Shown in pieces: positions 41,242 to 43,527 of a DNA stretch of 64,000 nt. The position numbers and the translations under genes are program-made. The notes beneath the pieces are model-generated. The model searched no databases. It worked only from the letters and a program-made list of their open reading frames with translations, and was not told where the DNA came from. Positions within the stretch are counted from its first letter, which is position 1, and each line of letters opens with the position of its first letter. This stretch comes from Eledone cirrhosa (taxonomy: Eukaryota), in the NCBI GenBank assembly GCA_964016885.1, contig OZ024740.1, positions 400,892,001 through 400,956,000 on the forward strand. The letters are read 5' to 3'.

Positions 41242-41895
41242 ATATATATATATATATATATATATATATATATATATATATATATATATATATATATATA
41301 AATTAATAAAAATAATGAATAAAAACAAAGAAACAGTTCCTTATATTAAAAAATTCATCATTTTACGATCGTTTCTAGGATATATATGTTTGTGTTGGTA
41401 TGTATATTATATAGATCTATGTAAAATGTTTACATACTATCAGAGGGAATATACATACCTACACATAAATATGCTGTCTTCAGAAATAATGATATTTATT
41501 TATGTATTTTGGTAGATTTATCTCTCTCTCTCTCTCTCTCTCTCTCTCTCTCTCTCTATATATATATATATATATATATATATATATATATATATATATA
41601 TATATATATATGTGTGTAAGTATGTATGTATACGTACATACATATATGTATACAGACGTACAGTAGCTTGTATATATATATATAAATATATATATATATA
41701 TATATATATATATATATATATATATATATATATATACATACAGGCACACATATATATATATATGTACGTATCAGTTTTAGCGAACATTTACTATAATGTT
41801 CGCTTTGTTCGTTTGTAAACAAACGGACAGCCTGATTTATGCCGTACGATGTTAAGGCAACCACGTCACCTTTTTGTTCAACACTGACACAGGAA

Positions 41896-41936
41896 CGATG
41901 TACAAGTTTCAAGCTTGTTAGCTATCGTCAGCACCG
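41896..41936 (-). ncRNA. Minimal type I hammerhead ribozyme, intact core
   Basis: cggtg-CTGACGA-t-agct-aaca-agct-t-GAAAC-tt-GTA-catcg. Confidence 0.8.
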
Positions 41937-42618
41937 TATACCCTTCTGTCAGATGGTTGAACGTTCGAAAGTATATACTTTCCTTATGAAAATTAACGGC
42001 TGAGCAGCGTAATTTGCATATCGAGTGAGTTCAGTCGGCCAGGCGCACTTAAAACGATAAAATGGAATAGAATGAAATGAAATTTCATTTCTCACTCTTA
42101 GCACGGCACTTACTTATATGTAAGTATGTATGTATACGTACATACATATATGTATACATCGTTCCTGTGTCAGTGTTGAACAAAAAGGTGACGTGGTTGC
42201 CTTAACACCGTACGGCATAAATCAGGCTGTACGTTTGTTTACAAACGAACAAAGCGAACATTATAATAAATGTTCGCTAAAACTGATACGTACATATATA
42301 TGTGTGCCTGTATGTATATATATATATATATATATATATATATATATATATATATATATATATATATATATATATATATACATGCTACTGTACGTCTGTA
42401 TACATATATGTATGTACGTATACATACATACTTACATATAAGTAAGTGCCGTACAAAGAGTGAGAAATGAAATTTTATTTCATTCTATTCGATTTTATCG
42501 TTTTCGGTGCACCTGGCCGACTGAACTCACTCGATATGCAAATTAGGCTGCTCAGCCGTTAATTTTCGTAAGGAAAGTATATACTTTCGAACGTTCAACC
42601 ATCTGGCAGAAGGGTATA

Positions 42619-42659
42619 CGGTGCTGACGATAGCTAACAAGCTTCAAACTAGTACATCG
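42619..42659 (+). ncRNA. Hammerhead copy with G12>C (CAAA), predicted inactive
   Basis: cggtg-CTGACGA-t-agct-aaca-agct-t-cAAAC-ta-GTA-catcg. Confidence 0.7.
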
Positions 42660-43078
42660 TTCCTGTGTCAGTGTTGAACAAAAAGATGACGTGGTTGCCT
42701 TAACATCGTACGGCATAAATCAGGCTGTCCGTTTGTTTACAAACGAACAAAGCGAACATTATAATAAATGTTCGTTAAAACTGATACGTACATATATATA
42801 TATGTGTGCCTGTATGTATATATATATATATATATATATACGTGCTACTGTACGTCTGTATACATATATGTATGTACGTATACATACATACTTACATATA
42901 AGTAAGTGCCGTACTAAGAGTGAGAAATGAAATTTCATTTCATTCTATTCCATTTTATCGTTTTCGGTGCGCCTGGCCGACTGAACTCACTCGATATGCA
43001 AATTAGGCTGCTCAGCCGTTAATTTTCATAAGGAAAGTATATACTTTCGAACGTTCAACCATCTGGCAGAAGGGTATA

Positions 43079-43119
43079 CGGTGCTGACGATAGCTCACAA
43101 GCTTGAAACTAGTACATCG
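43079..43119 (+). ncRNA. Minimal type I hammerhead ribozyme, intact core
   Basis: cggtg-CTGACGA-t-agct-caca-agct-t-GAAAC-ta-GTA-catcg; stem I cggtg/catcg; palindromic stem III ACTAGT. Confidence 0.85.
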
Positions 43120-43527
43120 TTCCTGTGTCAGTGTTGAACAAAAAGGTGACGTGGTTGCCTTAACACCGTACGGCATAAATCACGCTGTCCGTTTGTTTAC
43201 AAACGAACAAAGCGAACATTATAATAAATGTTCGCTAAAACTGATACGTACATATATATATGTGTGCCTGTATTTATATATATATATATATATATATATA
43301 TATATATATATATATATATATATATATATATATATATATATATATATATATATACATGCTACTGTACGTCTGTATACATATATGTATGTACGTATACATA
43401 CATACTTACATATAAGTAAGTGCCGTACTAAGAGTGAGAAATGAAATTTCATTTCATTCTATTCCATTTTATATATATATATATATATATATATATATAT
43501 ATATATATATATATATATATATATATA

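Follow-up and report, generated by a model that had tools for sequence, protein, structure and literature searches.

The window, a 64,000-nucleotide stretch of Eledone cirrhosa DNA, contains an array of short repeated units arranged in two head-to-head arms and inserted in a (TA)n microsatellite. An earlier note, made from the letters of the sequence, described 2.7 direct units plus one inverted unit, all without an ORF, and this layout was recovered as arms at 41615-42158 and 42157-43472. The parts of the array are as follows.

41557-41610, no strand: left (TA)27 flank of the target microsatellite, read from the sequence
41615-42158, minus strand: inverted arm of about 1.1 units, 5'-truncated, terminating at the short 3' end
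41896-41936, minus strand: type I hammerhead whose core is intact and whose helix III (ACTTGT) is not palindromic; predicted to cut after 41901
42155-42158: head-to-head junction of the arms, a 4-nt TACA overlap that coincides with the cut site
42157-43472, plus strand: direct arm, 498 + 460 + 358 bp counted from cut site to cut site
42157-42654, plus strand: direct unit 1, 498 bp, with an internal (TA)33 at 42315-42380
42619-42659, plus strand: hammerhead carrying a G12-to-C change at 42645 and predicted to be inactive
42655-43114, plus strand: direct unit 2, 460 bp, GC 0.36, with an internal (TA)12 at 42817-42840
43053-43139, plus strand: intact canonical type I hammerhead with extended helix I, core at 43079-43119, predicted to cut after 43114
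43115-43472, plus strand: partial unit 3, 358 bp, with an internal (TA)40 at 43275-43354, terminating at the long 3' end
43415-43472, plus strand: 58-nt tail, present on the direct arm only, as in Penelope-type insertions (described in PMC8557442)
43470-43529, no strand: right (TA)30 flank of the target microsatellite, read from the sequence

The internal (TA)n tracts of the array comprise 25, 33, 12 and 40 units. The longest stop-free frames, of 105-116 aa, cross these tracts, so the array contains no credible ORF. Its units are about 2-3% apart, with no locus-private change common to both arms, and within its sub-lineage the within-array distance (2.8%) is close to the between-array distance (3.1%). 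The array is probably one older insertion, a single decaying copy among about 15,000, and the locus has probably ceased to give rise to circles.

Several other elements lie in the window. A LINE-type element at 43625-45217 (minus strand) has a 530-aa RVT_1 frame with no GIY-YIG match, and its 3' end, with 10-nt repeats at 43527-43557, adjoins the right (TA)n flank. A broken Penelope-type element (PLE) at 45690-48001 contains RVT_1 at 46800-47354, GIY-YIG at 47279-48001, and a 242-nt inverted repeat (45690-45931 / 47759-48000). Fragmented PLE-like frames occupy 50166-52212 and 53117-53800 (both minus strand), the former matching parts of the Neptune-type ORF at locus L061, described below, at 33-68% identity. 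A tRNA family match at 26654-26725 (minus strand; 39.5 bits, over the gathering score) is possibly the head of a SINE.

The hammerhead motif was said to be present in each unit. Three hammerheads are found; of the motif, the final 0.7 unit keeps just the 3' strand of helix I. The motif string given for them matches 43079-43119, which is the one fully intact motif of the three; at 42619-42659 it reads CAAA for GAAA. A palindromic stem III likewise holds at 43079-43119 and fails at 41896-41936 on the minus strand. The predicted cut after GUA (43114) was placed correctly. The hammerhead G12 acts as general base (PMC6155905), which is why the hammerhead at 42619-42659 is predicted to be inactive. 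Because this mutated motif is the tandem partner of the one at 43114, the latter is a poor site for a cleavage test, and a direct-arm transcript with one intact and one G12-mutant core would be unlikely to release a monomer by two cuts. Two consecutive complete hammerheads, the criterion of Li et al. for an active locus, are absent at the window locus and present at many other loci of the family.

The window array belongs to a large family. An exact hammerhead core pattern has 14,707 matches in the genome, against 0 for the reversed control, and a DNA search returned 2002 candidates, of which 40 were scored; full-length matches are 96-98% identical. Family units are 420-500 bp long with a GC of 0.33-0.38 and form arrays of 1 to about 30 units, including ORF-less arrays of 20-30 units. 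The family has two main sub-lineages, with a similarity of about 81%. That of the window has the long variable (TA)n, and the commoner one carries (TA)5-8 in 105 of 113 tracts. A sister family with units of 466-469 bp is 64% identical, lacks the (TA)n, and has 9,332 genome matches. In contigs from three of five runs, the family occurs in X1 and X5, with none in X4. The family is a high-copy, ORF-less, dispersed non-LTR retrozyme for which self-cleavage and circular RNA are predicted. One array of more than 27 units (L247-L248) has recurring five-unit variant blocks, which suggests satellite-like expansion after insertion. A third tandem family (L095:25-400) has a 310-bp spacing, the same hammerhead geometry, and a helix III palindrome CGCG, and about ten more hammerhead families occur in many of the sampled loci, most with an AT-rich helix I and a palindromic helix III.

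The family hammerhead is a canonical type I hammerhead, the metazoan form defined in PMC4209133, and not the minimal one named in the earlier note. It has a helix I of 6 bp that continues through an internal loop into a long distal stem, a helix II of 4 bp under a U.U pair, and a helix III of one or two pairs with a CUAG palindrome. Minimal PLE hammerheads share the type I core and a palindromic helix III region suited to dimer cleavage. They differ in helix length, with 7-8 bp in helix II and 4-5 bp in helix I, and in a loop 1 that is poorly defined, unlike the 6-bp helix I, 4-bp helix II, and conserved internal loop found here.

Helix pairing is conserved in both families. Among 15 chosen copies, 97% of cells are paired, and 7 of 20 pairs are changed on both sides; controls slid along the sequence pair in 32-50% of cells. 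The covariation score was reached by 0 of 500 shuffles, a test inflated by relatedness in which the signal rests on few lineages. Core variation among the X1 and X5 contig sets is confined to N7, loop 2, and one compensated pair of helix I. The sequence fits what is presumably a contact motif between loop 1 and loop 2 (URH with RNYA), for which the literature search gave no confirmation. A type I descriptor matches the window 2 times, and each of 20 shuffles gave 0-1 matches. The covariance-model search suggested in the earlier note, made with Rfam, found no hammerhead match in 42890-43250, and there is no hammerhead among the best 150 of 235 Rfam matches in the whole window. The lone hammerhead folds no better than its shuffles in 3 of 3 cases (z about 0).

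Circular monomers, in 4 of 4 cases, fold beyond their shuffles (MFE z -6.8 to -14.2, 25 shuffles each), direct unit 2 of the window having z = -6.8. The (TA)n caps a long hairpin, which is also kept in the sister family although (TA)n is absent there. The variable tract, once singled out as a special feature of the monomer, is therefore no distinct functional part. An octamer-like ATGCAAAT lies inside a conserved hairpin at window 42995-43030; it is kept in both families, which are 64% identical overall, and is altered in the youngest sub-lineage.

Insertion geometry was read from the first pattern matches along contig C1, comprising 61 loci and 64 insertions after three edge-cut clusters were dropped. 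A single exact-pattern hammerhead is present in 48 of the 64 insertions, and 33 of them are two-armed and head-to-head. The outward 3' ends fall inside two windows about 56-58 nt apart in 76 of 95 cases and adjoin TA in 74 of 95. Two-armed insertions combine one long and one short end in 21 of 33 cases and two alike ends in 0 of 33, and among young two-armed arrays, 9 of 10 have their ends at 219 and 275. The window array obeys this rule of one long and one short end. An inverted 5'-truncated copy and a one-sided tail are described for PLE insertions in PMC8557442. In the window, (TA)n masks any target site duplication. At L086:6385-7270, a single-armed array lies inside a PLE ORF, and one apparent target duplication of 9 bp was read there by eye; part of the array was later carried into the inverted arm of that PLE. 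The earlier note's reading of a PLE-mobilised retrozyme family stands as far as the ORF-less, dispersed state of the copies and their Penelope-type insertion geometry go.

The same note considered that genome-wide copies might always be joined to an RT ORF. Insertions continuous with a PLE ORF (RT + GIY-YIG) number 0 of 64, in a sample that bounds ORF-linked copies only to less than about 5% and in which 21 of 61 loci have just 1.5 kb of flank. At one of the sampled loci, L061, the retrozyme unit appeared to be the pLTR of a PLE, and this candidate was rejected. The PLE (L061:2370-6980, minus strand) has its own pLTR, hammerhead, and inverted end, and sits exactly within the internal (TA)n of the unit. 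A C-terminal GIY-YIG and a cysteine linker indicate that it is Neptune-type. It is a young element that targets TA, and it has 2714 candidate copies, with best matches 98-99% identical. Comparisons of the unit with the Neptune-type pLTR exceeded shuffles in 0 of 6 cases, with no common end motif, and because it has no sequence in common with the unit, this PLE is a candidate driver only. Its best matches are older than the youngest arrays. A PLE of the Neptune type is the likeliest driver, at about even odds. At L039:1113-1817, a retrozyme copy in (TA)n lies between two outward-pointing PLE ORF fragments.

The cut site offers a view of the template. Junction-type matches number 190 at the cut site and 188 at a control 22 nt upstream (p = 0.96), and a second control 10 nt downstream has 512, a count raised by 1-nt deletions. 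In young arrays, 162 of 162 cores, counting only those with an intact upstream side, are unbroken over the cut site. Together, the lack of a 5'-end pile-up and the unbroken cores indicate that the template was continuous there, either circular or uncut. The arm junction of the window was considered as a cleavage footprint and rejected, since 0 of 97 5' ends fall at 270-280 and the cut site is not enriched. Its coincidence with the cut site is likely due to chance.

Arrays also differ from each other in ways suggestive of a single template per insertion. The young sub-lineage has 690 marker matches and long two-armed arrays, of which 12 were examined. The (TA)n length is array-specific, with 95 of 104 units in the modal class of their own array (shuffled mean 65, maximum 82). 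One marker change of array L197 has 8 occurrences in the genome, 3 and 5 in its two arms, and a second L197 marker is found in 97 places. A sister array has about 20 identical units spanning both arms; its haplotype is common to other long arrays and is hence non-discriminating. Array L180 is mixed in (TA)n and at two sites, which counts against a single template.

Changes carried by whole arrays are enriched in A>G, scored here on the ribozyme strand with overlapping duplicate loci and the indel-rich L203 left out. Array-fixed private changes are A>G in 9 of 16 cases, compared with 36 of 331 single-unit changes (p = 2.8e-5), and the excess persists without L209 (p = 0.008). Single-unit changes are balanced between the strands, with 36 A>G and 42 T>C. 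Two arrays, L209 and L246, were located through A>G markers, in an assembly that may smooth tandem arrays. L209 has nine fixed changes relative to the young master, 9/9 of them A>G and seven after T, and the set recurs through five full units and two partial ones. Three of these A>G lie within helix II and the CUAG palindrome, and this triple with its loop has no other occurrence in the genome. A second triple is present in both arms of one insertion on C22. L246 comprises 11 full and 2 partial units of two strictly alternating types, A and B, whose differences are 10/10 A>G relative to a natural reference copy; the lengths of its (TA)n tracts alternate between about 15 and about 10, and a type A mark is present on the inverted arm. 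Both arms of L250 carry 12 A>G relative to the nearest copies, those being only about 90% identical. As edits fall per molecule, a single circular monomer or dimer best accounts for one set recurring in phase on both arms.

Broader comparisons are less sharp. ADAR disfavours a 5' G, and A>G after G accounts for 6 of 107 changes versus 13 of 95 in the background. At loci chosen for one A>G, other A>G make up 100 of 611 changes versus 64 of 510 in the unbiased set (p = 0.075), a test blurred by sub-lineage differences. Family-wide, with the same loci left out, pooled distinct sites give a weak excess of A>G over T>C (79 vs 50, p = 0.013 before correction for six comparisons). A G>A strand bias of the kind attributed to cDNA deamination (33 vs 19, with edge artefacts) did not recur in the two larger lineages and was dropped. 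The window copy itself has no sign of edited-circle copying.

At a probability of roughly 0.72, a PLE reverse transcriptase and endonuclease wrote the retrozyme into (TA)n from RNA that was likely circular and sometimes ADAR-edited. Tandem copies would be transcribed and cut at their hammerheads, probably as dimers through the CUAG palindrome, and the monomers or dimers would be ligated into highly paired circles in which ADAR may convert some A to I. The PLE enzyme would cut (TA)n and use both DNA ends as primers, at a pair of TA-like sites separated by about 56 nt on the circle. Each arm would then be copied round the circle to a variable length, and the two 5' ends would be joined via microhomology. 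It is somewhat favoured, in addition, that the genome is a fossil record of single germ-line-edited circles, whose edits become heritable, drive the evolution of the family, and may block self-opening of the circle. In a preprint on frog retrozymes, 8 of 9 dimers are reported as uncleaved in vitro (bioRxiv 10.64898/2026.07.22.740005), which counts against such a scheme.

The same PLE-mobilised element could instead have been copied from a linear read-through multimer, with long arrays arising by later satellite-like tandem duplication at the DNA level. Older arrays are heterogeneous, the window's included, and the recurrent variant blocks in L175-177 and L247-248, which are irregular or five-unit blocks of non-A>G variants, indicate DNA-level expansion. 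Several long arrays have the L178 haplotype unchanged, which shows that donors exist, and local expansion via unequal crossover is among the proposals of Li et al. (bioRxiv 10.64898/2026.07.22.740005). This alternative is nonetheless unlikely: an insertion-private change is present in 8/8 units across both arms, and the fixed changes are A>G-biased on one strand whereas single-unit changes are symmetric. The first and last partial units of L246 are, moreover, already in phase, so that the same edit set would be needed twice at insertion.

A ribozyme-cut linear monomer or dimer could mimic a circle if the reverse transcriptase, on reaching the 5' end of the template, kept jumping back to the 3' end. 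Such jumping would also repeat one edit set in phase, and the direct arm of the window does begin within 2 nt of the cut site. It is made improbable by the 5' ends, which are no more frequent at the cut site than at the upstream control, and by the 162/162 cores without an indel after the cut site. There is a similarly small probability that the arrays represent truncated tandem ends of an autonomous PLE whose pseudo-LTR is the unit. The insertion geometry is the same as that of PLEs, the sample leaves room for ORF-linked copies below its 5% bound, and 24 of 57 frog retrozyme families are reported to match known elements, nearly all of them PLE ends (bioRxiv 10.64898/2026.07.22.740005). Set against this are the lack of ORF continuity in all 64 insertions (the sole apparent case, L061, being a separate nested PLE), the long ORF-less arrays, and a canonical hammerhead unlike the short AT-rich ones beside PLE ORFs in this genome.

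Earlier work describes non-LTR retrozymes with their circles, cleavage as dimers, and likely mobilisation by PLEs, and the circle as template and the PLE as driver stand as a proposal in the same sources (PMC7229834; PMC7761336; bioRxiv 10.64898/2026.07.22.740005). The metazoan non-LTR retrozymes of Cervera and de la Pena (2020, PMC7229834) are likewise short, low-GC tandem units with canonical type I hammerheads and no ORF, thousands of copies, and a self-paired circular fold. Their axolotl motifs have in common with the one here a one-pair palindromic helix III (Amex1) and a U.U pair at the base of helix II (Amex2). They differ in unit length, at about 170-400 nt versus 420-500 bp here. The insertions described here are two-armed and (TA)n-targeted, whereas the words "inverted" and "microsatellite" have 0 occurrences in the main text of PMC7229834. 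In that paper circles and cleavage are demonstrated and editing is named as a possibility, whereas here cleavage is predicted and the support for circles is genomic and indirect.

Li, Clavereau, and Pollet (2026, bioRxiv 10.64898/2026.07.22.740005) similarly describe co-occurrence with PLEs and arrays from monomers to long multimers, and propose PLE mobilisation. Their account covers vertebrates, three insects, and a coral and bases its argument on pLTR homology; for the present family no parent pLTR was found, and the PLE link is the insertion geometry. Insertions of EN+ PLEs (Craig et al. 2021, PMC8557442) share the partial tandems, the inverted 5'-truncated copy, the one-sided tail, and the (TA)n bias. 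They differ from the units here, which have no ORF and whose tail measures 56-58 nt, or about 69 nt for the sister family, compared with 30-40 bp. A literature search, mostly outside subscription papers, gave no account of this family or of edits fixed in retrozyme arrays.

The window locus is ordinary and adds little alone; the family supplies the evidence. It provides genomic evidence for the circle as template and the PLE as driver, and it names the loci at which two-armed ends and in-phase A>G marks can be read. If the proposed copying of edited circles is true, the heritable edits include some in helix II of the ribozyme and in the CUAG palindrome, which suggests a route by which A-to-I edits may enter the germ-line genome.
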